DNA from: a virus | Taxonomy: Duplodnaviria > Caudoviricetes | IMG/VR virus record: IMGVR_UViG_3300005253_000516 | Coordinates: 1-63,443 of that record | Direction: 5' to 3' (one strand) | Length of the DNA: 63,443 bases | Shown: piece by piece, positions 125 to 59,625 of the stretch | Position numbering within the stretch: position 1 is the stretch's first letter | Layout of the letters: each line of letters opens with the position of its first letter | Made by a program: the position numbers and the translations under genes | Notes under the pieces: model-generated | What the model was told of the DNA's origin: nothing | Databases searched by the model: none | Seen by the model: only the letters and a program-made list of their open reading frames with translations

Positions 125-236
125 GGCTAGAACGGCCCAAGCTCCTGATCTTTGATCGGGGCGGTGCGGTCATTATGCGCTAGCCAGGCGCAGCCGTTCT
201 AGCCGCCGGACTGCCTCGATCAAAGGATAGGAGCTT
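125..236 (+). promoter_or_regulatory. Structured leader (A-B-A'-B') sequestering the RBS of the HNH-AP2 gene
   Basis: GGCTAGAACGGC (125-136) is complementary to GCCGTTCTAGCC (193-204), which lies in the loop of a long hairpin AAGCTCCT..ATCTTTGATCGGGGCGGT / ACTGCCTCGATCAAAGGAT..AGGAGCTT that pairs the AGGAG RBS. Confidence 0.75.
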
Positions 237-241
237 TTTCT

Positions 242-718
242 ATGTCCAAAACGATCCCGCTCACCCAGGGCTATGTCGTTATCGTAGACGATGAGGACTT
301 TGAGAGGCTGGCGCAGCATAAGTGGTACGCACATCGTGGTCACGGAGGCGACTTCTACGCCGTGCGTAAGACGAGAGACACGAATGGCGAGCAGCGCATG
401 GTACGCATGCACCGCATTATTGTAGGTGCTAGCCCGGGTGAGGATGTGGATCATGAGAATCATGATACCCTGGACAATCGTCGGCGCAACATTCGTAGGT
501 GCACACGAGCTCAGAACCAGGCGAATTCGCGCAAGATGCGTGGAACATCGAGCCGATTCAAGGGGGTAAGCTGGCACAAGGGCATGCGCAAGTGGCAAGC
601 GGGAATTGCTCGCAATGGCAAGTCGCGCCACTTGGGCTACTTCGATGATGAGCATGACGCCGGCCGCGCCTATAATGCTGCGGCCATCGGGGAGTTCGCA
701 CTGCTCAACGAGGTATAG
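242..718 (+). CDS. HNH endonuclease with C-terminal AP2 domain
   Basis: MHR..VDHENHDTLDNRRRNIR HNH motif, then SRFKGVSW..HLGYF..A..AYNAAA AP2 motif; AGGAG RBS. Confidence 0.9.
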   Translation: MSKTIPLTQGYVVIVDDEDFERLAQHKWYAHRGHGGDFYAVRKTRDTNGEQRMVRMHRIIVGASPGEDVDHENHDTLDNRRRNIRRCTRAQNQANSRKMRGTSSRFKGVSWHKGMRKWQAGIARNGKSRHLGYFDDEHDAGRAYNAAAIGEFALLNEV

Positions 719-780
719 CCAGCACTACATCATTCCCCTTACGCCGTTCGCTCTTGGTCAGAGAATGAGAGGCTTTTTGT

Positions 781-1287
781 ATGGAGATCACGCATCCTGC
801 TGACTACTACGCTTACATGATCGACGAGCTGTCCAAGCGCCATCCCCGAGAGGATTGGGTGTTTGCCTTTGAGGTGCCGGAAGTATGCTCCTATGACATG
901 CGTTTCATCGATGCGTTCGCATGTGCTGTCCATCCGTCAAAGATGTTTCGACGCATCGCCTACGAGCTCAAGACTGCACGCGGCGACTGGCTCAAGGAGC
1001 TACGCAATCCTGAAAAGCGCGCCCCGTTTGTGGCCCTGTCGAATCAGTTCTGGTTCGTCATCGCCGAAGGCATCGGGTCCAAAGACGACATGCCGCCAGA
1101 TACCGCGGACTGCGGGTTGCTAGAGATCATGGCAACGGGCCGGACGCGAATCAGGACACGTAAAAAGGCGCCTCTCCGTGACGTGGGCGACATCCCGACA
1201 TCGTTCGCAATGGCGATGATGCGGACGGTGAGAGAGCGGCCAATACCGCAGCGCAGCAGGATCTATGTGTCACGACCGGCATGGTGA
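781..1287 (+). CDS. PD-(D/E)XK nuclease, MmcB-like
   Basis: FEV..RFIDAFA..AYELKTARGDW..EL..PEKR..SNQFWFV..GLL pattern. Confidence 0.7.
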   Translation: MEITHPADYYAYMIDELSKRHPREDWVFAFEVPEVCSYDMRFIDAFACAVHPSKMFRRIAYELKTARGDWLKELRNPEKRAPFVALSNQFWFVIAEGIGSKDDMPPDTADCGLLEIMATGRTRIRTRKKAPLRDVGDIPTSFAMAMMRTVRERPIPQRSRIYVSRPAW

Positions 1288-1442
1288 CATCGCCCGATAG
1301 CGGCGCGGGCTTTTGCGTGTCTAGGAGGCAAGCATGATCTCGCAAGAAACTGCGGACCATGTTAGAGAAGTCGTGGCGTTATGGGCCGAGCTGAACGCAT
1401 TGTTCGCAGAATTGCACGCGTTAGGAGAAAAGGCGAGGGACG

Positions 1443-1691
1443 ATGAAAGCTTCAACACCCCGACCTAGCCCGCCAAAGCCAGGACTGACAATCCTAATCG
1501 AGTTCACTGGCCCCATCGCGCGGTTGCCCTATGTCTTCATCAGCCGCACCGGCGTCTTTGCTTTCGGATGGCTCTTTGTGCATGTGGGTTTTATGACGAA
1601 AGACTATCGCGTCGGATTCGACACTATCGCGAGAGAGTTGGCAAAGAAGCATGGCAAGGATCAAGCTAGAGGGCCATCTAGTTTGCGTTGA
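1443..1691 (+). CDS. Small hypothetical protein
   Basis: ORF with GAGGG RBS in a tightly packed operon. Confidence 0.5.
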   Translation: MKASTPRPSPPKPGLTILIEFTGPIARLPYVFISRTGVFAFGWLFVHVGFMTKDYRVGFDTIARELAKKHGKDQARGPSSLR

Positions 1692-2940: not shown

Positions 2941-2969
2941 TTGACATGGCGCCGAGAATCGCGTATGAT
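2941..2969 (+). promoter_or_regulatory. Sigma70-type promoter of the replication operon
   Basis: TTGACA-17 nt-TATGAT. Confidence 0.8.
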
Positions 2970-2974
2970 GGTGG

Positions 2975-3210
2975 TGTAGGCGTGTGCGGGTAGCCCTCCG
3001 CCACTTTCACGAGTGGCAACCTGTGAGTATCAGGCGGGAACGTAGGGTCCGACGCCTACATGATGAAACTGGGATGACAACCCAGGGAACGCACAACTAG
3101 GTGGGACCACACATGCCTCTTGAATCGATGGTAGAGGCGATGCGGAGGGCGTCTTGTCAACGCCTATGGAGTCCCATCGCCGAATCGCCTTTACCATCGG
3201 CACAGGAGGC
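2975..3210 (+). promoter_or_regulatory. Structured leader: multi-hairpin domain plus RBS-sequestering hairpin
   Basis: TGTAGGCGT/ACGCCTACA closes two internal hairpins (GCCACT/AGTGGC, CCTG/CAGG); GCCTCTTG..CGATGGTAGAGGCGAT pairs with ATCGCCTTTACCATCG..CAGGAGGC, covering the RBS. Confidence 0.65.
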
Positions 3211-3217: not shown

Positions 3218-3730
3218 ATGGGTTGGATAAAGCTAGACGACCAGTTCCGTAATCATTCCAAGGTGCTGGCCGCCGGTCCTGATGGCGCGTGGCTCTACGT
3301 GTGTGGGCTATGCTACATCTCACAGCATGGCACCGGGGACTTTATTCCGGCGCGGGCTCTCGTAGAGCTGATGGAAAACCCAGACAATGACGTCGTTTGG
3401 CTCCGTCTAATACGCGCCAACTTGTGGCGCAAGGTACAAGATGGGTTCCGAATAGCTGACTGGCTCAACTGCGCGATTATGCCCAACCGCACCACGCAAG
3501 AAGCGCGCAAGTGCCGCGAGTACATCGCCTGGCGCAACGCTGTCAAACTCCGCGACCTGGACGTTTGCCAGGCTTGCGGCGAGTGGCAGGGCGAGTCACA
3601 CGCTCACCACATTTTGCCGTGGGCCTCGTTCCCAAGAGACCGCTTCGACGTTGACAACGGCCTGACGCTATGCGCCGAGTGTCACAAGGCGCTACACCGC
3701 GAAATGAGGGAGCATGCCGAAATGGCGTAA
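3218..3730 (+). CDS. Replication-initiator-like N-terminal domain fused to an HNH endonuclease
   Basis: MGWIKLDD..H.K..G.WLY..LCY N-terminus; RD..CQACG..HAHHI..DNGLTLCAECH HNH; AGGAGG RBS before ATG 3218. Confidence 0.8.
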   Translation: MGWIKLDDQFRNHSKVLAAGPDGAWLYVCGLCYISQHGTGDFIPARALVELMENPDNDVVWLRLIRANLWRKVQDGFRIADWLNCAIMPNRTTQEARKCREYIAWRNAVKLRDLDVCQACGEWQGESHAHHILPWASFPRDRFDVDNGLTLCAECHKALHREMREHAEMA

Positions 3731-4631
3731 GCTACACGTCAAGGCGCTAGAGTCTGAGGACATCCATGACATGCCCGACGATTTTACTCGGCTACTGTGG
3801 GTGCTGCTGCCCCTCGTGTTGGATCGGGAAGGACGCGGTCGGTACAATGACACATGGGTGCGCAGCAAAATCTTCCCTCTCAGAAATGACGTCACCGATG
3901 AGCAAGTCTGTCTGGCTATGGGCTGGCTCTACACTCGCCGCATGATCATCCCATATCAATCTAATGGCCGCTCATACTTCCATGTGCCATCATTCCCCCG
4001 CTACCAGGGAGACACGTCGAAGGAAGCCGAGAGCTACTATCCCCCTCCGCCAGACCTTGACGATGACGACTCGCGCCCTACTCCAGAGTTAGTCGAGAGT
4101 AACTCGGGAGTAGGTCAAGACCTAGTCGCGACTAGGTCCGGATCAGATGCAGATGCAGATGCAGATGCAGATGCAGATGCAGATGCAGATGCAGATGCAG
4201 ATGCAGATGCAGATGCAGATGCAGATGCACCCCCGGCAGCAGCAGCTCCGCTGCCCCCCGAATCGCGTCCTGAGCCAAACGCCGATCCCGTCGTGGCGCA
4301 TCTATTCGGCCTACTCGACAAGGCGGCGGTTATCGTCAACGGGGCTATGCAAGCCGAGGTGTGGACGGACCTATTGGACATCACGAGAGACAAGACACTA
4401 CTCAGCGAGACGTTCGTGGAAGCCGCAAGAACTGGCAAGCATCCCTCGCCTAACTGGTGCCGCAGCGTTTTGGAGCGGTGCATACGGGACAACACGCGGC
4501 CCGGGAAATGGAATGGCGACGGCAGAGCGCGTGACGAGCCCGCTGGCAAACCCTATGCCCGCGACGGGCCTCTACGCACAGTCAAATACGTCGCGTCGGA
4601 TGGCAGCCTCAAAAAGGGGACCGTAGGATGA
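3714..4631 (+). CDS. Phage replication initiator (lambda O/DnaD-like)
   Basis: RLLW..LD.EGRG N-terminus, low-complexity linker with repeats, located directly upstream of DnaB. Confidence 0.7.
   Translation: MPKWRKLHVKALESEDIHDMPDDFTRLLWVLLPLVLDREGRGRYNDTWVRSKIFPLRNDVTDEQVCLAMGWLYTRRMIIPYQSNGRSYFHVPSFPRYQGDTSKEAESYYPPPPDLDDDDSRPTPELVESNSGVGQDLVATRSGSDADADADADADADADADADADADADADAPPAAAAPLPPESRPEPNADPVVAHLFGLLDKAAVIVNGAMQAEVWTDLLDITRDKTLLSETFVEAARTGKHPSPNWCRSVLERCIRDNTRPGKWNGDGRARDEPAGKPYARDGPLRTVKYVASDGSLKKGTVG
4146..4229. repeat. Perfect (GATGCA)14 tandem repeat encoding (DA)14
   Basis: Directly visible; preceded by the 20-bp palindrome GACCTAGTCGCGACTAGGTC (4119-4138). Confidence 0.95.
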
Positions 4632-6022
4632 GCCGCATAGCCGCCGAGCAAGCACAGCTACGCCCGCATAGCATCGAAGCTGAGGAGGCGGTTCTAGGCT
4701 CCATCCTCATCGACCCCGACGCTATCCTTCGGGCTCAGGAGGTGGGCCTCGTGGCCGCTGACTTTTTCCGCGTGGCCAACGGCGCCATCTATGCGGCGGC
4801 CATCACCCTTGCTGAGGCGTACAGCGTCGCAGACTATGTGACCATAGGCGACGTACTTGAGAACCGCACGAACGGTGACGGCTCCCAGCTCCACATGATC
4901 GGTGGTGAGTCGGAGCTAACGCGGCTCATAACTCACACGCCTACATCGATACATGCTGGCCACTACGCCGAGATCGTCCACCGCCTCGCGCAACAGCGCC
5001 AGCTTATTGGCGTTGCGGGCGACATCGCAGCAGCAGCTCATGCGCACGATGGACCTATCGAAACGCTTTACGATGATGTGAGCCGCCAGTTTTTCGATGC
5101 CGTGGACGTGTCCGCGCCAGCGTCACATCTGCGAGGCGATGATAACACACTGTCTGACTACCTGGTCAATCAGCAGGCTATCAAGGAGCGGCTGGACGCC
5201 AACCCCGACGCGCTCATCACCACGGGCTGGGCGGACATCGATCGCTACTTGGGTGACATAGAGGCTGGCATGTTGCACGTTGTGGTGGCGCGGCCATCAG
5301 TGGGCAAGACGATCTATCTCGAGGGCATAGCGGAGCACAACGCGCAAAGGGGGCATCATGTCGCGTTTTACCATTTGGAGCTGTCTCATTCACTCATGCT
5401 TAACCGGCGTATGGCGCGTTACAGTGGGATTCCCATCCAGCAGCTCAGGCGCGGCTACACCGGCCCTAAGCTTGCGAGGGCGCTTGACGATATCCGATCC
5501 TGGCACCAACGCATCACATATATTCATTGTGCGGGGTGGTCTGCTGAGCGCATAGCGGCTGACATGGTACGCCTCTGCGCCAGGGGTGAGTGTGACCTGG
5601 CCATCATCGACTATTTCCAGAAGATGCGCTGGCCAGAGCGCAAGGGCGCGAACGTCTCTGCCCTTATGGGTCTCATGGCGGAGACCTTAAAAAACGCCGC
5701 TGAGAGTTTGTCAATCCCCGTGATCACGGCGGCACAGGTGAACCGCTCGTGGAAGGCAAACGCCAAGGGGCGGCCCCATATTGAGGATCTGCGCAACTCG
5801 GGTGAGATCCATGAGAAATGCAATCAAGCCGTGGTGCTACATAGGCCAAACGACCGCGAGGATAGACGCGGGGGCGGCACTTTGGAGGCCATAGAGGCGG
5901 CGGTGGAAAAGAACACGACGGGCGACGTGGGGAGAGTAGACATGTTCCACGAGGTAGGCCGCTTTCGCCTCGTGGGCGTCACGCGCCAGACGAGGCCCGA
6001 GACAGAGGAACTGCCGTTTTGA
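4628..6022 (+). CDS. dnaB: Replicative DnaB-like helicase
   Basis: PHSIEAEEAVLGSIL N-domain, Walker A ARPSVGKT, IIDYFQ, AQVNR, DLRNSGEI. Confidence 0.93.
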   Translation: MSRIAAEQAQLRPHSIEAEEAVLGSILIDPDAILRAQEVGLVAADFFRVANGAIYAAAITLAEAYSVADYVTIGDVLENRTNGDGSQLHMIGGESELTRLITHTPTSIHAGHYAEIVHRLAQQRQLIGVAGDIAAAAHAHDGPIETLYDDVSRQFFDAVDVSAPASHLRGDDNTLSDYLVNQQAIKERLDANPDALITTGWADIDRYLGDIEAGMLHVVVARPSVGKTIYLEGIAEHNAQRGHHVAFYHLELSHSLMLNRRMARYSGIPIQQLRRGYTGPKLARALDDIRSWHQRITYIHCAGWSAERIAADMVRLCARGECDLAIIDYFQKMRWPERKGANVSALMGLMAETLKNAAESLSIPVITAAQVNRSWKANAKGRPHIEDLRNSGEIHEKCNQAVVLHRPNDREDRRGGGTLEAIEAAVEKNTTGDVGRVDMFHEVGRFRLVGVTRQTRPETEELPF

Positions 6023-7408: not shown

Positions 7409-7800
7409 TGCTAGCGTTCCGCCTCGTGGGCCTCGAAGGACCGATCGTCCCATACGTGCGCATGACCCAGCGTAGCAAGCACGCGGACCCGAGGGCGCGG
7501 CGGTATCTCGCATCACAGCAGGCGCTCAAGATCCAACTGCGACAGCAGATGACCGAAAAGGACGAGTACGAGCCGTTGACGCGTGAGCCGCTAGAGGCGT
7601 TTCTGACGTTTTGGTGGGTGAACCACCGGCAGGATCTCGACAACCTCGTCAAAGCGATCCTAGACGCGGCCTCTGGTATCGTGTGGGCTGATGATAGATG
7701 GGTGGACCGATTCACCGCGTCGCGAGTGCCAAGGCGCGAGCAGACGTGTTTTTTGCAGGTGCGCAGCGTCGACGACGTGGAACGTTTGTTGAGGAGGTGA
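7405..7800 (+). CDS. rusA: RusA-like Holliday junction resolvase
   Basis: DLDNLVKAILDA..GIVWADDRWV signature. Confidence 0.88.
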   Translation: MMLAFRLVGLEGPIVPYVRMTQRSKHADPRARRYLASQQALKIQLRQQMTEKDEYEPLTREPLEAFLTFWWVNHRQDLDNLVKAILDAASGIVWADDRWVDRFTASRVPRREQTCFLQVRSVDDVERLLRR

Positions 7801-18459: not shown

Positions 18460-18476
18460 CGGTCCCTCCAAACAGA

Positions 18477-50144: not shown

Positions 50145-50188
50145 TTCGTCGCGATGCTAGAAAGGCACACACAAGACAGGACGGATCA

Positions 50189-50506: not shown

Positions 50507-50514
50507 GAGGAACC

Positions 50515-50880
50515 ATGACACTCGAGCAAGCATTGATCTGGGTTGCATCTGGGGGCGGGGCAGGCATAATCGCCTTCCTCATCATAGAGCGCTGGGCATG
50601 GGGCCTGTCTCTCGATCCTAAGCCTCGCCAGCTTTTGGCGTGGGTTATCTCTGGGCTGTGCGGGCTTGTGGCCCTTGGCGGAGGCCTTGCACTTGGCTAT
50701 CAGGCGATGCCGGCGACTGGCGAAGCCTGGGCCTCGATTATTTGGTTGGCCATCTCAACAGCGATCGGTGGTGCGAAACTTGCGCACACGTTCGCAGTGC
50801 TAGGCAAGTTCACCCGTGACCCCTATGGTAGCCGCATCGAAAAGCCGCCGCCATATCGACCACCATATCATCCACACTGA
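50515..50880 (+). CDS. Holin-like membrane protein
   Basis: Three hydrophobic segments; last gene of the late operon. Confidence 0.65.
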   Translation: MTLEQALIWVASGGGAGIIAFLIIERWAWGLSLDPKPRQLLAWVISGLCGLVALGGGLALGYQAMPATGEAWASIIWLAISTAIGGAKLAHTFAVLGKFTRDPYGSRIEKPPPYRPPYHPH

Positions 50881-50974
50881 CATGCCCGCCCGCCGCCCGG
50901 TTCCCCTTGCCGGGTCGCGGCCTCCTTTCCTCCTTGGGTACCTGACGCCTAACGGCTGAGGGTGCCCAGGTTGC

Positions 50975-51104
50975 TTGACATACGGCCCAGCATCGTGTAC
51001 GATATGGGTGCTGGCGTGTGTCCTCTGCAATAATCCCATAGTGAGAACGGCCCGAGCGGGGCGACACATGCCAGCACGTGTGATCAAAGCCGCTCGGGCT
51101 TCTC
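50975..51104 (+). promoter_or_regulatory. Promoter plus A-B-A'-B' leader of the second HNH-AP2 gene
   Basis: TTGACA-17-TACGAT; GTGCTGGCGTGTGTC (51008-22) pairs with GACACATGCCAGCAC (51063-77) in the loop of GCCCGAGCGG/CCGCTCGGGC. Confidence 0.75.
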
Positions 51105-51122
51105 TGCGTCTTGGAGGCAATC

Positions 51123-51605
51123 ATGAAAGAGATACCGCTGTCGAAGGGATACGTTGCCCTTGTTGACGATGAAGACTATGAGGAGTTGATGCGATACAAG
51201 TGGCATGTGGGTAGCTATGGACCACGCCCACATGCCATGAGGAAGGTGCGGCCGGCGGAGGGGGAAACCGTCACGCGCATAGCTATGCACCGTCAAATCA
51301 CGGGCGCGCCAAAAGGCATGGACGTGGATCATATCAATCATCAGACGCTAGACAACCAACGCGCCAATCTGAGAGTCTGCACGCGCAGCCAGAACATGAT
51401 GAACATGCGCAAGCGCCCCGGATGCTCTAGTCGGTTCAAAGGGGTTTGCTGGAACAAGGCCAATGACAACTGGATAGCTTACATCATGGTGAACTATTGC
51501 CAAAAGACGATAGGCTACTTTGATGACGAAGTAGACGCTGCCTGCGCATACAACGCAGAGGCTCGCGTCAAGTTCCGCGAGTTCGCGTTGCTGAATGATG
51601 TGTAG
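51123..51605 (+). CDS. HNH endonuclease with AP2 domain (paralog of 242-718)
   Basis: MKEIPLSKG..VDHINHQTLDNQRANLR..SSRFKGV..GYF..AYN. Confidence 0.9.
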   Translation: MKEIPLSKGYVALVDDEDYEELMRYKWHVGSYGPRPHAMRKVRPAEGETVTRIAMHRQITGAPKGMDVDHINHQTLDNQRANLRVCTRSQNMMNMRKRPGCSSRFKGVCWNKANDNWIAYIMVNYCQKTIGYFDDEVDAACAYNAEARVKFREFALLNDV

Positions 51606-51644
51606 CGAGTTTTGCCACAATCCGATTATGTACTGTCAAACCCC

Positions 51645-51673
51645 TTGACATCTCGTGTCATCTCGTGTATAAT
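51645..51673 (+). promoter_or_regulatory. Consensus sigma70 early promoter
   Basis: TTGACA-17-TATAAT with extended TG; the spacer is a tandem CATCTCGTGT repeat. Confidence 0.9.
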
Positions 51674-51718
51674 CATGGTAGAGTTGAGTGGGACAGGGGA
51701 CACACGAGGAGCAGAGAG

Positions 51719-51925
51719 ATGGCAGAGCAAGTAACGATCAAGGGTCAGAAATACACAATCATACAGCATCACACCTGGGGAATCCTCCCGGCCCTTGACA
51801 AAGATATGACCGCCCGCAATCTCAGCGACAGCCTCGGAATGGTCAAGGCCGGTGGCGGCAAGGTTCTCTTCCATGTCCATGTTGGCAACAGCGGCAACTA
51901 TAGCAAAGTCACCCGACTCGGCTAA
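51719..51925 (+). CDS. Small early protein
   Basis: GAGGAG RBS after the strong promoter. Confidence 0.65.
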   Translation: MAEQVTIKGQKYTIIQHHTWGILPALDKDMTARNLSDSLGMVKAGGGKVLFHVHVGNSGNYSKVTRLG

Positions 51926-51980
51926 CCCTTCACCCCGAGACGCCCGCCCGGAGCACGACTCCGGGCAAGGAGAGCAACCG

Positions 51981-52229
51981 ATGGAAACAACGAGATACAC
52001 GATCAGCGCAGACCCGGTAGACTATGGTGAGGATTGCAAGGACGGCCAGGCATGCGCCGAGGCAATGCGAACACACCTGCGACAGAACGCAGAAACCTTC
52101 GGGATGAATGTAGACTTTGCCATCGTGCCAGAAACCAGCAGCCGCGACAACCGATCGACAGGCGACGCCGCCATCATCTCAGAACTAGACCATATGCTGT
52201 ATAGGCACTGGATCGCCTGGCTTCCCTAG
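51981..52229 (+). CDS. Small early protein
   Basis: AAGGAG RBS. Confidence 0.65.
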   Translation: METTRYTISADPVDYGEDCKDGQACAEAMRTHLRQNAETFGMNVDFAIVPETSSRDNRSTGDAAIISELDHMLYRHWIAWLP

Positions 52230-52292
52230 ACGAAACGCCCCGGCGGCTCCGGAGCCGAGGGGCGTCTGTGGCAAGAGCCGCACTGATGAGTC
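52229..52292 (+). ncRNA. Type II hammerhead ribozyme
   Basis: GAC-GAAAC-GCCCC..GGGGC-GTC(cleavage)-TGTGGC-AAGA-GCCGCA-CTGATGA-GTC: complete core plus stems I, II and III. Confidence 0.9.
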
Positions 52293-52311
52293 AAACACAG
52301 AGGAGGGTAAC

Positions 52312-52548
52312 GTGGACAAACAAATCACGATCATCGCCGCGCAACCGATCCAGTACATGGCCCCGCTTTGGCAGGTTGACCTGCTCGGCCCAAAACTGAA
52401 TGTCGAGTCTCTCGAATGGCTCAACGAACAGCCAATCTCTATTGTCGCCAGCAACGTTCAAGGCTGGCCCCCCTTCAGCCATCTTGTCGAGGTTGAGGTC
52501 GAGATAGAGGGCACATGGCAATACCTGGCACTGGCTCAGGGAGCCTAG
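52312..52548 (+). CDS. Small early protein
   Basis: GAGGAGG RBS just 3' of the ribozyme. Confidence 0.6.
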   Translation: MDKQITIIAAQPIQYMAPLWQVDLLGPKLNVESLEWLNEQPISIVASNVQGWPPFSHLVEVEVEIEGTWQYLALAQGA

Positions 52549-52608
52549 TACACCGCCCCGCTGGCGGGCATAGCTGCCTGAGTATACTCAGGACAGAAAG
52601 AGGAGACC

Positions 52609-52845
52609 ATGGGACCAAAACGGCGACGACGAGGGGTCGGCGGTGCGCCACTGACGCCGATCCGCTACATCAATGTGAACTTTCCGCCGAGTGACCGCGA
52701 GCTGCACGAGTGGGTCAAGGCGAAAGCAAAGGAACGCCGACAGGGAGCGTCGCAATTTCTGCGGTGCCTGGCGGATGACGCGAAGGCGGCGGAAGAGGCG
52801 GAGCTGGCGCTAGAGGCGGAGGCGAGCGATGGATCCGCAGACTGA
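52609..52845 (+). CDS. Arc/RHH-like DNA-binding protein
   Basis: INVNFP..ELHEWVK.KA......SQFLR. Confidence 0.6.
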   Translation: MGPKRRRRGVGGAPLTPIRYINVNFPPSDRELHEWVKAKAKERRQGASQFLRCLADDAKAAEEAELALEAEASDGSAD

Positions 52846-53053
52846 CCAAATCGCCGCGATTGAAACGAATCAGAGGGAGTTGTTTAGAGCCGGACGCGCA
52901 GCCGCAGAGGCTGGGGTGATGGCCGCTGAGCTAGGCGCAGCGCTAGAACGAAGGGTTGCCCTCAACACCGCCAGCATCGAGAGCTTTGAGCGCACCATCA
53001 CCGACATGCAAGCGCAGATCGACAAGCTGACGCGGGAGGCGAGCGATGGATAA
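52829..53053 (+). CDS. Coiled-coil hypothetical protein
   Basis: GGAGG RBS; heptad pattern. Confidence 0.6.
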   Translation: MDPQTDQIAAIETNQRELFRAGRAAAEAGVMAAELGAALERRVALNTASIESFERTITDMQAQIDKLTREASDG

Positions 53054-53792
53054 CGCCAGGAACACGGACGGGACGCCGTATCTAGGTCACGGCGGCGGCG
53101 GCGCAGCAATGGGCGACCGGGGGACGGATGGCAAGACGCCCTGGTATGACGAACGCATCACGCCCGAGATCCCGCTAGAGCAGATCGACCGTGAGGCCAT
53201 ACCCGACTATGCGCTCGTCGACAGTCGCATGCGCGAGCAGCGAGCCGCTGACGGACAGGGCCGCACGCCAGAGCAGCGGGCAGCGGGCGAGTACGTCGCG
53301 ATCGACACCATGGACCCAGAGGTCCGCGGCGCCATCGACGCGCAGGACAACGCCATCGAGGAGCAGGATGCCACAATCGACAAGCCGCGCAAAGACGTTG
53401 ATCGATGGATGGATGATCTCGAAAAGCGGGGCGATGAGACATCAGACAACGAGGCGGCTATCAAAGCCCTCCAGGCAACCCTCGCCGAGCAGTCCGCCCT
53501 CATCACCGGCCAGCGCGCCGCTATCGAGGCGTTGCGCGTGGTGTTTGAGGAGGTGGCGCAGGGCGCGAGGCATCTGGCGGGGAGGATTGACAAGCTCGAA
53601 TGGTGGCGCGATCGACAGCACACCATCAACCAGGACATCTATCGGCAGATGCAGAGCGGGTGCGATAAGCTAACCCTGGACCGCATGAACGGTGATGACG
53701 CGCTGGACCAGAGGATACGGGCACGCGCGATTGAGTTGGAACACAGGATCGACGCACTAGAAAAGCAGGCAAAGGAGGGCAACCGTGAGTGA
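53046..53792 (+). CDS. Coiled-coil hypothetical protein
   Basis: GGAGG RBS; long heptad region. Confidence 0.65.
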   Translation: MDNARNTDGTPYLGHGGGGAAMGDRGTDGKTPWYDERITPEIPLEQIDREAIPDYALVDSRMREQRAADGQGRTPEQRAAGEYVAIDTMDPEVRGAIDAQDNAIEEQDATIDKPRKDVDRWMDDLEKRGDETSDNEAAIKALQATLAEQSALITGQRAAIEALRVVFEEVAQGARHLAGRIDKLEWWRDRQHTINQDIYRQMQSGCDKLTLDRMNGDDALDQRIRARAIELEHRIDALEKQAKEGNRE

Positions 53793-54249
53793 CTCTATTG
53801 CCGTCGACCAGGTGCTTGCCGACCTGGAGCACATTCGTGACGAGATCGAGCAGGCGGCGTGCGAGTTGGCCAAAGTCGAAAAGAAACAGGCCCATATGGG
53901 CCATGTCTTGCAACAGTCAAAAGATGAGCACGAGCTAATGATCGTCACGGCCACGATGGAGGCATACGCTGAGGATGTGGTCAACGGAAAGAATCAAAAG
54001 ATGCGGGATGCCCAACTCAGCGCCTACATTGGCACGCACAAAGGCATAGAGCTTACTATGCGTCAATACCGACGCGCGGAAACGGAGGTCGCTATTCTCG
54101 AGACAGAAGCAACGCTACACCGCCGCAACTACACCGTCGCAACCAACCGCCTTTGGGCTCTGCGCGCTATGGCAGAGCTGCATTCAGCGCGACTCAATTC
54201 CATGGCAGGTGTCGAGTACCACACAGAGAGAGGAGAGCGAGTAGGATGA
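53785..54249 (+). CDS. Helical protein (UvsY-like pattern, uncertain)
   Basis: GKNQKMRDAQL motif inside a coiled coil. Confidence 0.55.
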   Translation: MSDSIAVDQVLADLEHIRDEIEQAACELAKVEKKQAHMGHVLQQSKDEHELMIVTATMEAYAEDVVNGKNQKMRDAQLSAYIGTHKGIELTMRQYRRAETEVAILETEATLHRRNYTVATNRLWALRAMAELHSARLNSMAGVEYHTERGERVG

Positions 54250-55043
54250 CGACCACAATGGACCTGATGGACAGGGCGCAGATGGAGGCCGTGCAAGCCG
54301 ATGAACTGAAGGTTGGCAAGGACGCCCTTGCCACCACCTCGCAGAACGTCCCGGCGACAATCCCCGAGATCCCCGCCGAACTCAGCATGGAAGGCATGGA
54401 AGGCATCGAGCAGTCCGACCTGATGGTCCCACGGATGCGGGTTTTGCAGCCCACATCGAAGCTCGATGGGACCACGGGCGAGTTCCATTTCAACCTGACC
54501 GGCGAGACAAAAAAGACGGTCGTCGCTGTGTTGCTACGCGTCCAGAAAGGCCGCGTGATGTGGAACCCTGATGACCTGGGGGCTGCCCCGGTGTGCGCCA
54601 GCGACGATGATAAGATGCCAAGGTCGGGCGGGACCTACGCAAACCCCTGCGCTGATTGCCCAATGAGCAAATGGGGCGCAGAAAACACCCCGCCCGCCTG
54701 CTCGGCGACCTACAACTTTTTGGCCGCCGACACAGAGGACGATAACGCGCCGTTTATGCTGAGTCTGAGCAAAACCAGCCTCAAGCACGCCAAGCGCATC
54801 ATCAGCGTTTTTGTCCTCAAGCACAAGCCACTCTGGTCAGGCCCGGTGCGCATCATGTCGATACTCGTCACAGGCGACAAGGGGAAGTGGTACGAAGTGA
54901 CCTTCACCCCCGCGCCCCCCAAGGGCTTCGACTGGCGCCCCTATCGCGAGATGTATCTGGGCATGAAAGCTATGGAACTGCGCACCGATACAGAGCCTAC
55001 GCCGCCAGAGGGCGGGCTTGATGAGGAAGAATTGCCGTTCTAA
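54246..55043 (+). CDS. Phage ssDNA-binding/annealing protein (putative)
   Basis: PR..VLQ.TS..G.F..C.S.D..CA.CP..WG..PAC; acidic DEEELPF tail. Confidence 0.65.
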   Translation: MTTTMDLMDRAQMEAVQADELKVGKDALATTSQNVPATIPEIPAELSMEGMEGIEQSDLMVPRMRVLQPTSKLDGTTGEFHFNLTGETKKTVVAVLLRVQKGRVMWNPDDLGAAPVCASDDDKMPRSGGTYANPCADCPMSKWGAENTPPACSATYNFLAADTEDDNAPFMLSLSKTSLKHAKRIISVFVLKHKPLWSGPVRIMSILVTGDKGKWYEVTFTPAPPKGFDWRPYREMYLGMKAMELRTDTEPTPPEGGLDEEELPF

Positions 55044-55560
55044 ACGATGTCCCAATAGACGGGGCAGAGGCGCAACGACAACGTGACGAAGCGCCGCCAG
55101 CACACAACCCGCGTAGGAGCAGAGCGAGGTTGTTCGGATAGCAACGCGGCGCGGGGTAGTCGGTGCCCATCGGGAGTCGAGTCCCGACCGCGCCATGGGC
55201 AACCGGGGCAACTTGCCCCTCCCTTAACTGGACGCGCCGTTGTTCCGGTTGCCTTCATCCGCAGACAGAGAGGAGGCCGCCGATGCGCTAGTGGGAGCCC
55301 AGGTAGAGGGCGCTTGCAGCAATAGATGACCGCAAAAGGGTGGAAGGCCGCAGCCCGGCAAACGAGCGGCCACTCTCGGCAGGGGCAACAAGTGAGCGAA
55401 GCCCCCGCCACGTATCCGCCACGACGTAGCTAGCAAAGGAGGCCACCGATGCGGGCAACTGAATCACGCGAGCGCTGCCCCCCAAGACACGAGAATTAAC
55501 ACTGCCGTTTGGGGGCCGCGACGGATTAGAGCGGCCCGCCGCTGGAAGCATAGAGAGGAG
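55044..55560 (+). ncRNA. Putative structured ncRNA region with a mini tRNA-like domain
   Basis: About 520 nt without a credible ORF; multiple hairpins (see findings). Confidence 0.45.
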
Positions 55561-55566
55561 AGAGAC

Positions 55567-55773
55567 GTGTCTTATCAATGTGGTCGCTGCGGGACCGAGA
55601 TCAAGTCGGGCCTTGACGGCGTGTTGCAACAAAAGGACTATGATGCACTCTGCTGGGCATGCTACGATGTCACCATCACAGAGGAGCGCGAGGCCGCCCA
55701 GATCGAGGAGGCGAACCGCGAGGCAGCCAAGCAAGAGGGGATGCGGGAAGAGGACGCGGAAGCCGAAGCATAG
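55567..55773 (+). CDS. Small Zn-finger protein
   Basis: CGRCG..LCWACY. Confidence 0.6.
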   Translation: MSYQCGRCGTEIKSGLDGVLQQKDYDALCWACYDVTITEEREAAQIEEANREAAKQEGMREEDAEAEA

Positions 55774-56671
55774 AGAGGAGAGCGTCATGCCACAGGGCCT
55801 AAAGCACTACAACGTCTTTTTCCGTGAGACGCGGCGACATAGGTGGTACTGGCTGCCTAAAGAGTCGCGGTGGGCAACTGCGAATGGCCTGCGGGACCTG
55901 CGCGAGAATCTACGGGCGCGGTTGGACAAGCTCCCCCGAGAGCAGGGCAAAACGCCGGGATACGCTATTGTGCGGGATGACTCCGGCATCGTGCTGATGT
56001 CAATGTCGAAAGCTACGTGGCGGCGGATACCGAAAAGCGAAAAGGCATTGGTAGAGAGGAGGGAGACGTGAGCGGCTACATGACCGCCACCGCTGCCCGC
56101 GCCCTCTACGACCGCGCACAGCGGCCTCGCCCGTCGCGCGTGACGCCCGAGCGCAACGCTGCCTTGGCCGCGATGCTTGCTGACGAGATCCGCGTAGCAC
56201 GCGCGTCCGGGGCGGTCATGGCAGCGCAGGGGCATAACGGGCCGGCGGCGTATGTGTTCTCTGAGGTGCGACGGATGACGGAGTTGCGGGGGTTTTACGC
56301 AGGGGAGAGAAGCGAAGCATGGTAACGATCTGCGTGGTATGTTTGTGCGTGATCTCAGGCAATCCAGATGACGCACTTGATGGTGAGATTGAGCAGGGAC
56401 TATGTAGTCCGGAATGCAGAGACGCATGGGATAAAGAACAGTTTGGCAAGGAGGCCGACGATGGCGAGTGACTTTATTCAGATCGGCGACGTGGCTATTG
56501 GCGTAAAAGCCATAGCGTGGATCGACTTCGCAGACGCAGACGTTGTGACGCTGGCAACGGTAGACATGCGGGAGGGCGAGCATTGGACATTCAAGGGTCC
56601 CCAGTCCGCCGCCTTTCGCACCTGGTGGGAGACCAAGGCGTCGGTCAACGTGCTGTATACGGAGCCCGACG

Positions 56672-56917
56672 ATGTGTAAATGTCTAACGAGCTTAACAGA
56701 CCAGGGCTGGCCCTTCCCATTCGAGCAGCGGCTATCCTTTAACATCGAGACCATGGGAAACCTGTCCGCGCCTTGGGGCGTCGCCTTGCAACACGCGACG
56801 AAAACGGGGAAACGCAGCAGCAGAGGCAGCAAGTTCCTGCTGCTCAACTATTGCCCCATCTGTGGCAAGGATCTGAGGGAAAAGAGCGAGGAGGCCGACG
56901 ATGAATCGCCAACGTGA
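56672..56917 (+). CDS. Small Cys-rich protein
   Basis: MCKC..LNYCPICGK.L. Confidence 0.65.
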   Translation: MCKCLTSLTDQGWPFPFEQRLSFNIETMGNLSAPWGVALQHATKTGKRSSRGSKFLLLNYCPICGKDLREKSEEADDESPT

Positions 56918-57136
56918 CGCCGACCGCCGCGAGGATGAGGGCCGCATGTCGGTGTTTGTGACGGCCCTCGCGTTGGTGGCAATGGTCGCAGTAGCGGCTG
57001 CCCTGGCCTACTACCTCAACACCGCGCCGTGGGCGCAAGGGTTTTGGGAGGCGGTGCGGTAAGATGATAGACGCGCTAGCCGGCCGCAAGTGGGCGGTGC
57101 TGCAGGGCGATTGCCGCGAGCTGAGAGGAGACTAGA

Positions 57137-58730
57137 ATGAAGGAGGGCCAATCGGTAGGGATTGGCGCTGTACTTTCAGGTGAGCGCAAGTGGACAGTGG
57201 CGCAGGGGGATTGCCGAGAGCTATTGCGCGCCATGCCTGCTGAGAGCTGCCACCTGGTTTGTACGTCGCCACCCTACTGGTGATCACTGAGGACTTCGTG
57301 ACTATTCCCTCCCTCCGCTCGTGTGGGGCGGCTCGGATTCGTGCGAGCATGAGTGGGGAGAGGAGCAGATAGCGCGCGAGGAGGCGGGCTGGCAACGATG
57401 GAAGCCGAATGATGGGCGCAAGCACAATACCGTTGCGATAAGAACGAACGCCGATAGCAAGCCGTCCCAGGGCGCCTTCTGCCGCTACTGCCACGCCTGG
57501 CGCGGCTCCCTGGGCCTTGAGCCGACGCCCGAGCTCTACATCGCACACATGGCCGAGGTGTTCCGCGAGGTCAAGCGGGTACTGAGGAGCGACGGCACGT
57601 GCTGGGTGAATATGGGGGATAGCTACGCGGGAAGTGGCCCTAGCGGGGCATCCTACCAAAGCAAGACGACAATCGCTCGCGCTGGCAAAAAGCAGGACGG
57701 GGCATTCAGAATCAGTAAGAGGCTTGGCGAGCGTGGCCTAACCTATGCCAACAAGAAGCCTATCGCGCCTCCCGGCCTCAAGCCCAAGGATCTCTGCGGG
57801 ATGCCCTGGCGCCTCGCGTTCGCGCTGCAGGCCGATGGGTGGTGGCTGCGCAGCGAGATCATCTGGCACAAGCCCAACCCCATGCCCGAGAGCGTCCGCG
57901 ACCGGCCGACCAAGGCACACGAGACGGTGTTCCTGCTGACGAAGGCGGCGAGATACTACTATGATGCGGACGCGGTGCGGGAGTCCTACAAACCAGAATC
58001 GGCAGAGCGCTATCGGTATGCCTTGCAAGACACATGCAATACCTATGGGCAGCATAAGCCAGGATTCAAGGCTCGCGAGAAAACGACCAAGACGCGGCCG
58101 CCCAACCCCGCCGGCCGCAACCGCCGCACCGTGTGGACGATTCCCACTGCCGCGTTCCCCGGCTCACACTTTGCGACATTTCCACCCGCCCTCATCGAGC
58201 CCATGATCCTCACGTCGCCGACCAAGTGCTGCGCGGTGTGTGGGGCGGGGTGGGAACGCGTCACAGAGAAGCGCGAAACTGACGAGAAGCATCGACTTGG
58301 GGCCGGTTGGGCCACGCATGATGGTGGTCACGGCAGCATACATCGGGAGGGACGCGAGCAAGAGGTGACATATCAGCCAGTGATTGCGACCACCACCCTC
58401 GGCTTTCGCCCCGCCTGCGACTGTCTCTTTCCCGCCTGGGTGCCGACGCCGCGTCAGGGCAAAGATGAGACCGACGCCGCCTATGCACTGAGAATCTTTC
58501 CTGTGCTAGTGGAGCAATGCCAACTCATGGCCATCTATGAGAGCGCCGAGCCAGAGGACACAGTGCCCGCGGTGGTTCTGGATCCCTTCGTCGGCTCGGG
58601 GACCACTATCATGGTTGCCCTGCGCCATGGCCGTAACGCGATCGGTTTGGAGCTGTCAGAAGAGTACGCCGAAATGGCGCGCCGGCGCATCGTGGCTGAC
58701 AGTCCGCTATTCAATCACACTGGAGGATGA
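57137..58730 (+). CDS. N6A/N4C DNA methyltransferase (beta class) interrupted by a 10-nt insertion
   Basis: QGDCRELL..TSPPYW [TGATCACTGA] GLRDY..IIWHKPNPMPESVRDRPT..HFATFP..VLDPFVGSGTT. Confidence 0.85.
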
Positions 58731-58731
58731 C

Positions 58732-59031
58732 ATGACCGACCATGATGAGTTGTCGAGCTACCCGTGTCCGCGGTGGTCGCCCTACCAACGGCATGGGTGC
58801 GAGCCTGGCCCGGCCTGCCGTGAGTATGAGGAACACTGCGACTATGAAAAAACCTACCGCGCCCACATCAAGCTGCGCGACGACATACGCACACTGCGCG
58901 CCGCCGTGTTGGGGGATATGACGCCAGCGGAGGCGGAAGCGATGTATCGCACTGCGTCTAAACGCGAGTCCGGATATGTGAACTCACAGGGTCGCTTCAA
59001 CGCCCTGGCCGACGTGGTGGTGGAGCTGTGA
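58732..59031 (+). CDS. Cys-rich hypothetical protein
   Basis: GGAGG RBS; YPC..C..C..C. Confidence 0.6.
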   Translation: MTDHDELSSYPCPRWSPYQRHGCEPGPACREYEEHCDYEKTYRAHIKLRDDIRTLRAAVLGDMTPAEAEAMYRTASKRESGYVNSQGRFNALADVVVEL

Positions 59032-59498
59032 TGGTTGACAGCGAGCAAACCAAAGAATTGCGGCATATCGCGAAACGTCTAAAGTCGCATGTCGAAGAAA
59101 TTGACACTTTCATCGACCGCGTCGAGGCAGAGAGGCCAAGGGGGCTGCTACCCACGCTGAACGACCAGACGATCTACTGCCTGAAAGACATGATCAACGA
59201 ACATCCGCTTCTCTACAACATAACTGGCTATGAGTGCGTGCAGCATGACCGTGATGGTTTCGGGCATATTTGCAAGTGGGAGACGTTTATCGAGCTTTTG
59301 GCGCACAGGCTTATAGTCGGGGTCGACATAGACGGGGCCGATTTCCGCACGGTTGTCTACACTATCAGCGACGAAGGCCGCAAGGTCGTGAGGGAATGGA
59401 GCAAGCTGTATTGCGCCAGGGCAGACAAGCGCATGGCCGAGTTGACAGAGAGGCGGCGACAAGAGCTGGCCGACGTGGTGGCGAAGCTAGATGCTTGA
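59028..59498 (+). CDS. Winged-helix-like protein
   Basis: ELLAHRLI..YTISDEGR. Confidence 0.55.
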   Translation: MMVDSEQTKELRHIAKRLKSHVEEIDTFIDRVEAERPRGLLPTLNDQTIYCLKDMINEHPLLYNITGYECVQHDRDGFGHICKWETFIELLAHRLIVGVDIDGADFRTVVYTISDEGRKVVREWSKLYCARADKRMAELTERRRQELADVVAKLDA

Positions 59499-59625
59499 CA
59501 TGCGCCGCGAAATCGCTTATGATGTGGGTGCGAGCACACACGGACACAATAGCACGGCATTCAGCCCGCCAAGGGACAAAGTCCGGTGTGCTCGCACATA
59601 CCGACGGTAGGACCCAAGGCGGGCT
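59495..59625 (+). promoter_or_regulatory. Promoter plus A-B-A'-B' leader
   Basis: TTGACA-17-TATGAT; GTGCGAGCACAC-A-CGGAC (59528-45) pairs with GTCCGGTGTGCTCGCAC (59581-97) inside AGCCCGCC/GGCGGGCT. Confidence 0.75.

Follow-up and report, generated by a model that had tools for sequence, protein, structure and literature searches.

The P4 CI RNA and the P1/P7 c4 RNAs derive from leaders in which an upstream segment complements a loop of a structured RNA that the leader encodes further downstream, and in which this pairing leads to premature termination; the RNAs, which make up a family conserved in sequence, are released from the leader by processing and act in trans at two target sites. In pseudoknot riboswitches of the preQ1-I type a hairpin loop crosses with a single-stranded tail, which decides the fate of a terminator, and the helices are short, ligand-binding and conserved in sequence. 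The countertranscript-driven attenuators of the plasmids pT181 and pIP501, in the cited part of their description, consist of a leader behind a constitutive promoter with a terminator-like stem-loop directly before the start codon; pairing of an early 5' 'pre-emptor' prevents the terminator, and the arrangement doses a protein that is harmful in excess (PMC5703833). Endonuclease genes of the T4 type, both free-standing and intron-borne, are held low by hairpins that hide the ribosome binding site (RBS) and have promoters of their own; terminators also restrain the expression of mobE and segF, and seg43(25) carries a very stable hairpin just upstream that leaves its RBS free (PMC2988022, in the part cited). 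The DUF3800 motifs, as far as the cited portion of their description goes, comprise 11 mutually dissimilar structures with one genomic association, several of them with terminators after them (PMC5737381, Weinberg et al. 2017).

The window analysed here (the whole stretch of DNA, 63,443 nucleotides) covers in full a phage record that is complete at 63.4 kb. Two strong interleaved helices in the order A-B-A'-B' occur in each of five intergenic leaders (R1-R5), a helix being contiguous Watson-Crick plus G.U pairing and its strength the sum of stacking energies. An earlier note, made from the letters alone, had singled out these five leaders as clear cases and a sixth (R6) as possible, and all five are present where it placed them. 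The features are as follows (energies in kcal/mol).

125-136 / 193-204, plus strand: R1 helix A/A', 12 perfect bp, -26.8
139-170 / 205-236, plus strand: R1 helix B/B', about 30 bp, crosses A/A'
242-718, plus strand: HNH_3 + AP2 endonuclease gene downstream of R1
2941-3065, plus strand: promoter (2941-2969), then at once an Rfam DUF3800-VII RNA (2975-3065)
3125-3200, plus strand: R6 hairpin, its 3' side reaching the RBS of the HNH-containing gene 3218-3730
18607-18579, minus strand: R2 promoter-like site TTGCGA-17-TATACT with TG extension; A begins 5 nt past it
18574-18560 / 18517-18503, minus strand: R2 helix A/A', 15 bp, one G.U, -33.9
18533-18521 / 18490-18478, minus strand: R2 helix B/B', 13 bp, -29.2, crosses A/A'
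18462-17680, minus strand: HNH (PF01844) endonuclease gene downstream of R2
39324-39333 / 39367-39376, plus strand: R3 helix A/A', 10 perfect bp, -21.9
39334-39409, plus strand: R3 long hairpin B/B', crossed by A/A', with A' at its apex
50975-51003, plus strand: R4 promoter TTGACA-17-TACGAT
51008-51022 / 51063-51077, plus strand: R4 helix A/A', 15 bp, one G.U, -32.4
51049-51059 / 51090-51100, plus strand: R4 helix B/B', 11 bp, -28.1, crosses A/A'
51123-51605, plus strand: HNH_3 endonuclease gene with AP2-like C-terminus, downstream of R4
59495-59523, plus strand: R5 promoter TTGACA-17-TATGAT
59528-59545 / 59581-59597, plus strand: R5 helix A/A', 12 + 5 bp, one mismatch between
59563-59570 / 59618-59625, plus strand: R5 helix B/B', 8 G+C-rich bp, -21.2, crosses A/A'
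59647-60628, plus strand: two genes downstream of R5, an 85-aa ORF without family match and DUF5131

The helix B/B' closes a large-loop hairpin, after which come a U-rich tract, a Shine-Dalgarno sequence and the start codon. This succession (B', U-rich tract, GGAGG, start) is found in R1, R2, R4 and R5 and likewise in the IMG/VR examples considered below, with individual variations: the Shine-Dalgarno sequence of R1 (229-233) lies inside the B' arm, with T5 and the ATG at 242 after B'; a U-rich tract and GGAGGG follow B' in R2, a U-rich tract, GGAGG and the ATG at 51123 in R4, and a U-rich tract, GGAGG and the ATG at 59647 in R5, whose B/B' becomes longer when internal loops are allowed. The R2 gene probably starts at GTG 18462, judging from the Shine-Dalgarno spacing; its ORF is open from 18480. 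R3 is the weakest of the set, without promoter and without U-tract; its hairpin ends 2-3 nt ahead of the Shine-Dalgarno sequence of ORF 39421-40119. Apart from the promoters, sequence comparison found the primary sequences of the leaders mutually unrelated, as the earlier note had it, and its description of them as topologically identical is too strong, since the loops show at least two kinds of geometry. In R1, A abuts B (L1 = 2) and A' abuts B' (L3 = 0), and since both contacts are contiguous the complete helices look mutually exclusive at any one time. R2 and R4 have loops L1 26, L2 3 and L3 12, and across R2, R4 and R5 the linkers measure 17-26 nt (L1) and 12-20 nt (L3). Throughout, A' adjoins an arm of B/B', with L2 = 3 in R2 and R4.

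Promoters of sigma-70 type precede R2, R4 and R5, and in these three leaders A does start 5 nt past the -10 box, as had been noticed; a promoter scan found no promoter-like site at R1 or R3. The L1 loop of R2 also contains, as read by eye, a TATAAT-like hexamer without a -35 box at usable spacing. HNH genes lie downstream of R1, R2, R4 and the partial case R6, in agreement with the earlier reading, and the R1 gene (242-718) is 53% identical to the gene at 51123. Downstream of R3 comes ORF 39421-40119, which has no family match, and beyond it the tape-measure gene. Contigs of related phages appear to be without the two genes at 59647-60628, with the R5 leader kept. The DUF3800-VII match (47.5 bits, gathering score 36.2) has a nested fold, not a crossing one. 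The leader of the promoter at 21472 has a canonical terminator at the same position as B/B'.

The design is beyond chance. For each region the best crossing pair, scored by its weaker helix, was compared with 200 dinucleotide shuffles, a check that the earlier note had proposed, and the observed pair was reached in none of them for R1, R2, R3 and R4 and in one for R5. The possible sixth case did not hold up, as the crossing pair in 3102-3210 was reached by 14 of 200 shuffles, and by 7 of 60 in a second test. A scan of both strands of the genome for crossing pairs in which neither helix is weaker than -21 kcal/mol returned 10 pairs at 7 distinct loci, compared with 2.4 on average and at most 7 in 40 block shuffles. 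The intergenic members of these seven loci are exactly R1-R5, and the other two (58125-58260, plus strand; 44965-44834, minus strand) lie within coding sequence, intergenic and coding being called here from the ORF map without a gene caller. On the antisense strand the helices are weaker in R1, R2, R3 and R4, and of the 13 IMG/VR leaders that were significant, 11 have the stronger helices on the sense strand, one is equal on both strands and one is weaker on the sense strand. Since it is G.U pairs that make the sense strand more stable, the helices are placed in RNA of that strand, and the claim of a repeated design at the RNA level is thus borne out. It could be objected that the interleaved inverted repeats arose by chance or are features of the DNA without a role in RNA, such as protein-binding sites, recombination sites or scars of cassette insertion, given that about two crossing loci of such strength are expected genome-wide, that R3 and R5 are the weakest, and that the helices of R5, and partly those of R2, are equally good on either strand. 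Besides the shuffles and the G.U pairs, however, the fixed position between promoter and RBS, the U-tract on the sense strand and the recurrence of the design with unrelated sequences all speak against this explanation, which is already disfavoured and which we regard as extremely improbable.

No alignable homologues of the window's own leaders were found; the design itself does recur in other phages. Homologous HNH-AP2 genes were examined at 71 distinct IMG/VR loci, and 12 of these have a crossing pair at z <= -3 in the 160 nt ahead of the start, compared with 2 of 284 control windows (inside the ORF 0/71, two downstream windows 1/71 and 0/71, far upstream 1/71). None reached z <= -3 among the 24 HNH loci of a second, independent set (best values -2.9 and -2.5), and a helix model relaxed to allow up to two interruptions lost discrimination in G+C-rich genomes. 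Most cultured phages pack the HNH gene against its neighbour and have no leader, so the design is confined to a minority of cassettes. An unrelated contig, G006, has four cassettes that each contain a crossing pair reached by none of 200 shuffles. Between these cassettes identity is 68-81% for the promoters, 48-90% for the tails and 50-72% for the opening 73-90 nt of coding sequence, whereas the cores from A to B' are 50-58% identical, compared with 46-50% for shuffled cores. Promoters and tails are thus conserved, and the helix sequences are randomised and yet complementary: the structure outlasts the sequence. A' tends to sit tightly against B', with L3 <= 1 nt in 9 of the 12 IMG/VR leaders and L3 = 0, 0, 1 and 0 in G006. 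Because it recurs in unrelated phages, the design probably represents a genuine expression switch of an undescribed kind.

A' is made before B', so that A/A' should fold first in the nascent RNA, and in transcripts truncated before B' the helix A/A' is the minimum-energy fold in R1, R2, R4, R5 and a further leader, L008; it is not favoured in the nascent fold of R3. In the complete leaders the B state surpasses the A state in stability by 0.6-27 kcal/mol in all 12 IMG/VR leaders and also prevails in L008, R1 and R2; R4 and R5 lean slightly towards the A state. We therefore propose, with a probability of roughly 45%, a cis-acting attenuator-type switch in which two interleaved helices without common bases compete, A/A' forming first and hindering the terminator or RBS hairpin. 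The hairpin B/B' with its U-rich tract resembles an intrinsic terminator placed 5-21 nt ahead of the start codon and would terminate transcription; in R1 its B' arm additionally contains the Shine-Dalgarno sequence. A, with which the transcripts of R2, R4 and R5 begin according to the predicted start, would pair with A' inside the large loop of the hairpin, adjoining one arm, and would turn this loop into a stiff helix, so that closure of the base of B/B' would be hindered or delayed. With closure blocked, the polymerase would read through and the gene would be expressed; with A not free, B/B' would fold and the molecule would be terminated or silenced. The two helices would thus be antagonists, some factor presumably deciding between them, and their balance may keep the dose low and buffered for the gene that comes first after a consensus promoter, most often that of a free-standing HNH homing endonuclease. 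A terminator scan limited to loops of 3-8 nt did not call the leader hairpins, whose loops measure 30-47 nt. In Bacillus phage Stahl a terminator annotated by the depositors stands directly ahead of the RBS of an HNH-AP2 gene; its loop, by our own reading of the sequence, measures about 21 nt.

The earlier note had left the choice between a co-transcriptional switch and a pseudoknot, and both readings remain live. The two helices may coexist in a static structure, with end-to-end stacking or side-by-side packing, that would bury the transcript 5' end beside the terminator stem and keep 5'-end-dependent RNases off the mRNA or off a terminated leader of about 95-110 nt. The helices have no common bases, so the sequence forces no choice; the linkers of R2, R4 and R5 seem long enough for an H-type pseudoknot with both helices together and no switching; A' abuts an arm of B/B', which allows coaxial stacking; in several IMG/VR leaders L2 measures 7-10 nt and the adjoining helices 11-14 bp, as in a groove-crossing loop; and A lies at the predicted transcript start in R2, R4, R5, L008 and most IMG/VR examples. 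Coexistence is nevertheless unlikely, since in R1, R3 and the IMG/VR leaders with L1 of 2-5 and L3 of 0-3 two fully formed helices look sterically impossible by loop-length reasoning, a protective 5' hairpin need not reach into a terminator loop, and the terminator-like hairpin with its U-tract before the RBS would be left unexplained.

Alternatively, the input might be the leader itself. Terminated leaders in the B state would display A' in the hairpin loop and A as a free 5' tail, could pair in trans with nascent A or A', and by preventing the cis pairing would enforce termination, so that rising promoter activity or a higher genome copy number would lead a cassette to cap its output; this would be the logic of pT181 or P4 CI RNA without a separate antisense gene. 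The layout resembles antisense-controlled attenuators, with an early 5' pre-emptor and a terminator before the start codon (PMC5703833, in the part cited). Like antisense recognition sites, A' sits in a loop; A precedes A' by 40-60 nt, which gives time for capture, the two states are balanced in energy, and cassette-specific randomised cores beside similar flanks would fit private specificity under selection. Such feedback is, however, a scheme that we infer throughout and consider distinctly unlikely: trans pairing normally loses to cis pairing, R4 and R5 are more stable in the A state, and the cores may also have diverged through age and compensatory drift or through selection against recombination between repeats. 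More improbable still is the suggestion of the earlier note that the leaders sense whether a transcript starts locally or is read through or processed, A being free, or paired, in one case only. A begins at the predicted transcript start in R2, R4 and R5, which would fit this reading; a 7-bp upstream complement to A in R4 (6 of 300 shuffles) and the bypass of T4-type RBS-hiding hairpins by an internal late promoter (PMC2988022, in the part cited) would also fit. But because A lies downstream of the start, local and read-through transcripts both carry it; an upstream segment that could sequester A as an input signal was found in only one of 17 leaders, which is the chance level; R1 and R3 have no promoter; and no promoter-like site was called inside the leaders of R2, R4 and R5.

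The attenuator-type switch that we favour resembles pT181 and pIP501, as described in the cited part of PMC5703833, with which the leaders share a 5' segment, a terminator-like hairpin before the start and a presumed control of dose. In pT181 it is the terminator's 5' arm that the pre-emptor pairs with, giving nested alternatives with shared bases, whereas A pairs with the loop and, except for a weak extension of 4-6 nt in R4, shares no bases of the terminator arms. The signal in pT181 comes from an antisense RNA that is encoded separately and transcribed from a promoter of its own; in the leaders of R2, R4 and R5 we found no antisense gene, and no convincing antisense promoter. The T4-type elements, in the cited part of PMC2988022, are single hairpins switched by a late promoter inside the hairpin, instead of interleaved helices; their terminators have 4-nt loops and lie within the coding region, unlike the terminator-like hairpins of our leaders, and pairing of a 5' segment with a hairpin loop is not described in that part.

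The order of elements (A, stem, A' in the loop, stem) is the same as in P4 CI and P1/P7 c4; unlike that sequence family, the leaders of the window match no Rfam family at E values up to 10, the Rfam check being another that had been proposed. With H-type pseudoknots and preQ1-I riboswitches they have the crossing topology in common, but their helices are 8-30 bp long, the leaders showed no conserved unpaired bases, and the tail corresponds to the transcript's 5' end.

The DUF3800 motifs are defined by a neighbouring DUF3800 gene (PMC5737381, in the part cited), and none was found in this phage. Its DUF3800-VII RNA matches a nested consensus, whereas R1-R5 are crossing; a promoter of their type immediately precedes it, and an HNH gene lies downstream. 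In the cited part of their description (PMC5737381) the DUF3800 motifs pose the same kind of puzzle as our leaders: dissimilar structures in a common genomic context.

The earlier note had described, in five intergenic leaders of this phage, two interleaved helices in the order A-B-A'-B', with the arm A' lying inside the loop of the hairpin B/B'. All five are present in the sequence as described, and our data confirm the observation and extend it beyond the genome of the window. The leaders, together with a sixth region put forward as a possible case, are:

125-236, leader R1
18481-18574, minus strand, leader R2
39324-39409, leader R3
51008-51104, leader R4
59528-59625, leader R5
3102-3210, possible case

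For each region, the energy of the weaker helix in the best crossing pair was compared with 200 dinucleotide shuffles. The concern that crossing complementarities might arise readily in shuffled sequence is not borne out for the five leaders, whose observed pair was reached by 0/200 shuffles in R1, R2, R3 and R4 and by 1/200 in R5; the possible case at 3102-3210 is not significant, its pair being reached by 14/200. Neither the region of the DUF3800-VII RNA nor the leader of the promoter at 21472 possesses a crossing pair by this score (104/200 and 94/200 shuffles reach the value). Genome-wide and on both strands, 10 crossing pairs at 7 loci have both contiguous helices at or below -21 kcal/mol, against 2.4 on average and at most 7 in 40 block shuffles, so that about two loci of such strength are expected by chance; at a threshold of -20 the excess is smaller (11 pairs, shuffle mean 5.5, maximum 15). 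R3 and R5 are the weakest of the five leaders, and two of the seven loci fall in coding sequence. A helix model with unlimited interruptions yielded long spurious 'helices' in coding sequence and was dropped. The two helices of the leaders follow one another in the crossing order of an H-type pseudoknot, and G.U pairs strengthen the sense-strand helices in R1, R2, R3 and R4, which favours RNA and argues against a feature at the DNA level.

The 63,443-base IMG/VR record is complete according to the CheckV estimate and has a G+C content of 58.6%; no near relative was found among deposited phages. Six plus-strand consensus promoters of the form TTGACA-N17-TAnnAT (2941, 21472, 50975, 51645, 59495 and 63244) compare with 0.18 predicted by shuffles. 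Further features of the genome are:

1-94 and 63350-63443, direct repeat at the termini, about 94 bases long with a single mismatch
63333-63422, 29-codon ORF, apparently hydrophobic, spanning the terminal repeat
18607-18579, minus strand, weaker seventh promoter-like site

A was said to begin at the 5' end of the transcript in three cases, and in R2, R4 and R5 it does start 5 nt past the -10 hexamer, where transcription is expected to begin. No promoter-like site was found at R1 and R3; R1 sits behind the 29-codon ORF, which is served by the promoter at 63244 across the terminal repeat. Behind B', a U-rich tract, GGAGG and a start codon follow in this order in R1, R2, R4 and R5, the Shine-Dalgarno sequence of R1 lying within B'. 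R2 and R4 have a common geometry (A/A' 15 bp, B/B' 11-13 bp, and loops or linkers between the arms of 26 nt for L1, 3 nt for L2 and 12 nt for L3). The arms of R1 are packed more closely, A adjoining B and A' adjoining B', and in R3 A adjoins B and a long hairpin has A' at its apex.

The B/B' hairpins have the G+C-rich stem and U-tract of an intrinsic terminator: the R1 stem is followed by T5, and stems of 8-13 G+C-rich bp in R2, R4 and R5 by interrupted U-rich tracts; R3 is without a U-tract. Their loops measure 30-47 nt, which is why a consensus terminator scan with loops of 3-8 nt called no hairpin in R1-R5. As in pT181-type attenuators, the terminator-like hairpin of R2, R4 and R5 stands right before the start codon, behind a leader promoter, with 15-21 nt between the end of B' and the start codon. 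An alternative helix sharing bases with a terminator arm was not found in the leaders: A' lies in the loop, beside the arm without overlap, the sole exception being R4, in which A/A' extends weakly into 4-6 nt of B. We class the leaders as attenuator or pseudoknot control, in a variant defined by structure and position. None of the RNA sequencing runs searched carries this phage.

The mechanism that we infer starts from B/B' as a terminator-like hairpin, or in R1 as a hairpin masking the ribosome-binding site (RBS). A/A' would be its antagonist and would form first, because A' is transcribed before B'. Lying against an arm, A/A' would turn a flexible loop into a stiff helix, and with short linkers elsewhere this would keep the base of B/B' from closing. 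Loop lengths suggest a mutual antagonism of the two helices. Reasoning from coordinates, the formation of both at once is implausible in R1 (L1 2, L3 0) and R3 (L1 0) and plausible in R2, R4 and R5 (L1 17-26, L3 12-20), where both may coexist as a pseudoknot. Considering nested folds only, RNA truncated just before B' folds into A/A' in R1, R2, R4 and R5, and not in R3. For the whole leader, likewise as nested folds only, the B/B' state is ahead of the A/A' state in R1 (-60.7 versus -43.0 kcal/mol) and R2 (-40.0 versus -34.8 kcal/mol), and the A/A' state is narrowly ahead in R4 (-43.2 versus -40.8 kcal/mol) and R5 (-42.8 versus -40.1 kcal/mol).

The same design is found in other phages. When the four leader-adjacent proteins were queried in IMG/VR, no close relatives were found for three of them (the DUF5131 query gave relatives at 28-43% identity only); the fourth, an HNH nuclease, led at 56% identity to locus L008 on a 14.8-kb contig that has only this gene in common with our phage. 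There, a promoter is followed by a leader that starts with A (12 bp), carries A' in the top of a hairpin resembling a terminator and runs through a U-rich tail to an RBS. Our first generic statistic missed it (130/200 shuffles reach the value), because its B/B' is interrupted more than once and overlaps A' by 1-2 nt; with as many as two interruptions permitted and a tolerance of 2 nt, its z against shuffles is -5.5. Since the statistic was loosened after this leader had been seen, L008 alone is weak evidence. We fetched 80 loci with HNH-AP2 homologues and analysed 78 (two with short flanks were dropped), from which 7 duplicates were removed, leaving 71 distinct loci. A crossing pair at z <= -3 occurs within 160 nt before the start in 12/71, compared with 0/71 inside the ORF, 1/71 and 0/71 in two downstream windows, 1/71 far upstream and 4/71 on the antisense of the upstream region. 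The clear cases have a promoter 4-9 nt ahead of A, an A' adjoining B', and then a U-tract and RBS; L3 is 1 nt or less in 9/12 significant leaders, and the B/B' state is the more stable one in 12/12. A second set comprised 53 loci, 28 of them usable and 4 of these duplicates; none of the 24 new loci reached z <= -3 (best -2.9 and -2.5), and several, e.g. L120, show the same layout as the interleaved leaders.

A small alignable family of HNH-gene leaders (L110:200-310, L135:200-310, L071:400-510) has a different design. By eye, compensatory changes are seen in both its outer helix and its inner hairpin. The loop of this hairpin is complementary to two sites, one just past the outer helix and one in the Shine-Dalgarno region, and in L071 the loop and both complementary sites change together, again as read by eye. 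The leaders of about 130 loci are otherwise not alignable with one another. Homologous HNH genes were retrieved from eight cultured phages; in six of these no spacer precedes the gene, and in one there is a spacer of 59 nt. The eighth, Bacillus phage Stahl (L157:332-394), has a depositor-annotated terminator directly before the RBS of its HNH-AP2 gene, whose loop of about 21 nt, read from the sequence, is unusually large, as in the R leaders, but it offers only a weak A+T-rich complement.

A contig-wide scan of five other contigs under a looser helix model exceeded shuffles only in G006 (7 strand-loci versus 0-1 in six shuffles), there being no excess in G002, G003, G004 and G005. G006, which offers the clearest test of the design, is a 31-kb contig (40% G+C) of an unrelated phage, and it carries four promoter-leader cassettes of the interleaved design on one strand (loci L173/L174):

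about 73-230, minus strand, promoter-leader cassette
4598-4698, minus strand, promoter-leader cassette
7666-7749, minus strand, promoter-leader cassette
10613-10696, minus strand, promoter-leader cassette

Three serve HNH-AP2 genes and one an HTH_36 gene. In every cassette the promoter reads TTGACA-N17-TATACT or TATAGT, A lies at the start, and a U-tract and an RBS are present; L3 is 0, 0, 1 and 0, and each crossing pair is reached by 0/200 shuffles. Identity between the cassettes is 68-81% in promoters, 48-90% in tails and 50-72% in the first coding bases, and from A to B' the cores share 50-58% identity, compared with 46-50% for shuffled cores. In these paralogous cassettes both helices persist although their sequences are unrelated: pairing is retained and sequence lost, which gives indirect support to covariation and is the nearest approach to it that the data allow. 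No close homologue of the G006 nuclease was found among cultured phages.

Alignable homologues of R1-R5 themselves were not found among deposited phages, through IMG/VR protein queries or in one metagenome scan, which gave three short contigs of 70-75% amino-acid identity not extending to any leader. Related phages are present in coded DNA runs, and contigs of four runs were compared with 43444-63443. The differences listed in these low-identity metagenome contigs include one insertion behind 59554, in loop L1 of R5, and some joints, related contigs joining about 59604-59644 to about 60632 or 59903. These low-identity contigs suggest that some relatives retain the R5 leader without the genes at 59647-60628. 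The 85-aa ORF and the DUF5131 gene may hence be an insertion/deletion polymorphism just past the terminator-like hairpin of R5, a suggestion that is tentative because depth and identity are low.

What the leaders respond to can be read in several ways. They had been proposed to sense whether a transcript starts at the local promoter or arrives by read-through or processing, and we looked for an upstream segment complementary to A that could act as a competitor; it is present in only 1/17 leaders, and we rejected the competitor, a result that likewise counts against the sensor. As to an antisense RNA, there are no opposite-strand promoter-like sites inside the leaders and no convincing antisense promoter in R2, R4 and R5, and one opposite-strand 9/12 match, in an HNH ORF (51355-51328, minus strand), is at chance level. 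Alternatively, each leader might be a self-contained, self-antisense autoregulator, in which terminated leaders capture nascent transcripts of the same cassette and drive their termination, a reading that we consider unlikely (roughly 0.15). A terminated leader RNA would then expose A' in the loop of its terminator, leave A as a free tail at the 5' end, and act in trans through the exposed A' loop. This would account for the location within a loop, for the early placing of A and for cores specific to each cassette. If this were true, every mobile HNH cassette would have a private, copy-number-compensating shut-off that needs no regulator gene, and the fast turnover of helix sequences with pairing kept would reflect selection for orthogonality between cassettes sharing a genome.

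The phage has five HNH nuclease genes (242-718, 3218-3730, 17680-18462 on the minus strand, 27868-28626 and 51123-51605), those at 242 and 51123 being paralogues with 53% identity. The gene at 27868-28626 (plus strand; PF01844/HNH_5) follows the major capsid gene by 16 nt and has no leader, so the design is not used by every HNH gene of this phage. The promoter at 21472, directly after a tRNA gene (21387-21458, plus strand), has a 133-nt leader with a strong 5' hairpin, a canonical small-loop terminator (21578-21612) with T-tract, and a tail as in the R leaders; this phage thus seems to place terminators in its leaders habitually. Promoter and leader (21472-21633, plus strand) precede a structural gene block of about 30 kb, and the arrangement, with a leader terminator downstream of a constitutive promoter, is reminiscent of the antitermination control of the lambda late genes. 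Elsewhere, an ORF at 15690-16292 (plus strand) encodes a ribosomal protein L7/L12 C-terminal domain (E 1.5e-13). Downstream of the promoter at 51645, between ORFs, the stretch 52228-52300 (plus strand) resembles the type II hammerhead ribozyme, scoring 34.4 bits, just below the gathering score of 37 (E 0.0034), and the alignment contains both conserved core motifs.

The suggested search of Rfam gave nothing for the leaders: R1-R5 match no Rfam 15 family at E up to 10, nor do the leaders of 13 IMG/VR loci at E up to 1. A DUF3800-VII RNA (Rfam 15, 47.5 bits) lies at 2975-3065 (plus strand), right after the promoter at 2941 and upstream of the HNH gene at 3218, and no DUF3800 protein was found in this phage. 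Just downstream of an HNH gene in locus L041 there is a DUF3800-VIII-like match of 39.1 bits, against a gathering score of 40.2. DUF3800 motifs may go with phage leaders close to promoters, and not with the DUF3800 genes themselves.

If real, the leaders would represent a regulatory RNA class set by topology and position (transcript 5' end, terminator loop, RBS) and not by sequence. Such a class would escape searches that depend on covariance-model homology, and this may explain its absence from Rfam. Selfish homing-endonuclease cassettes would then carry a compact promoter-leader module capping their own expression. The underlying principle of RNA switching would be an antiterminator that stiffens the terminator loop, or forms a pseudoknot, without competing for terminator bases, and the hypervariable yet complementary cores could yield many orthogonal parts for synthetic biology.

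A limited search of the open-access literature found no description of the interleaved design. Among the systems closest to it are the P4 CI and P1 c4 RNAs and the pseudoknot riboswitches. The pT181/pIP501 attenuators (PMC5703833) and the hairpin and terminator controls of T4-type homing-endonuclease genes (PMC2988022) are likewise among the closest. Set against all of these, no separate regulator is evident in our leaders, and the competing helix targets the loop of the terminator and not its arm.
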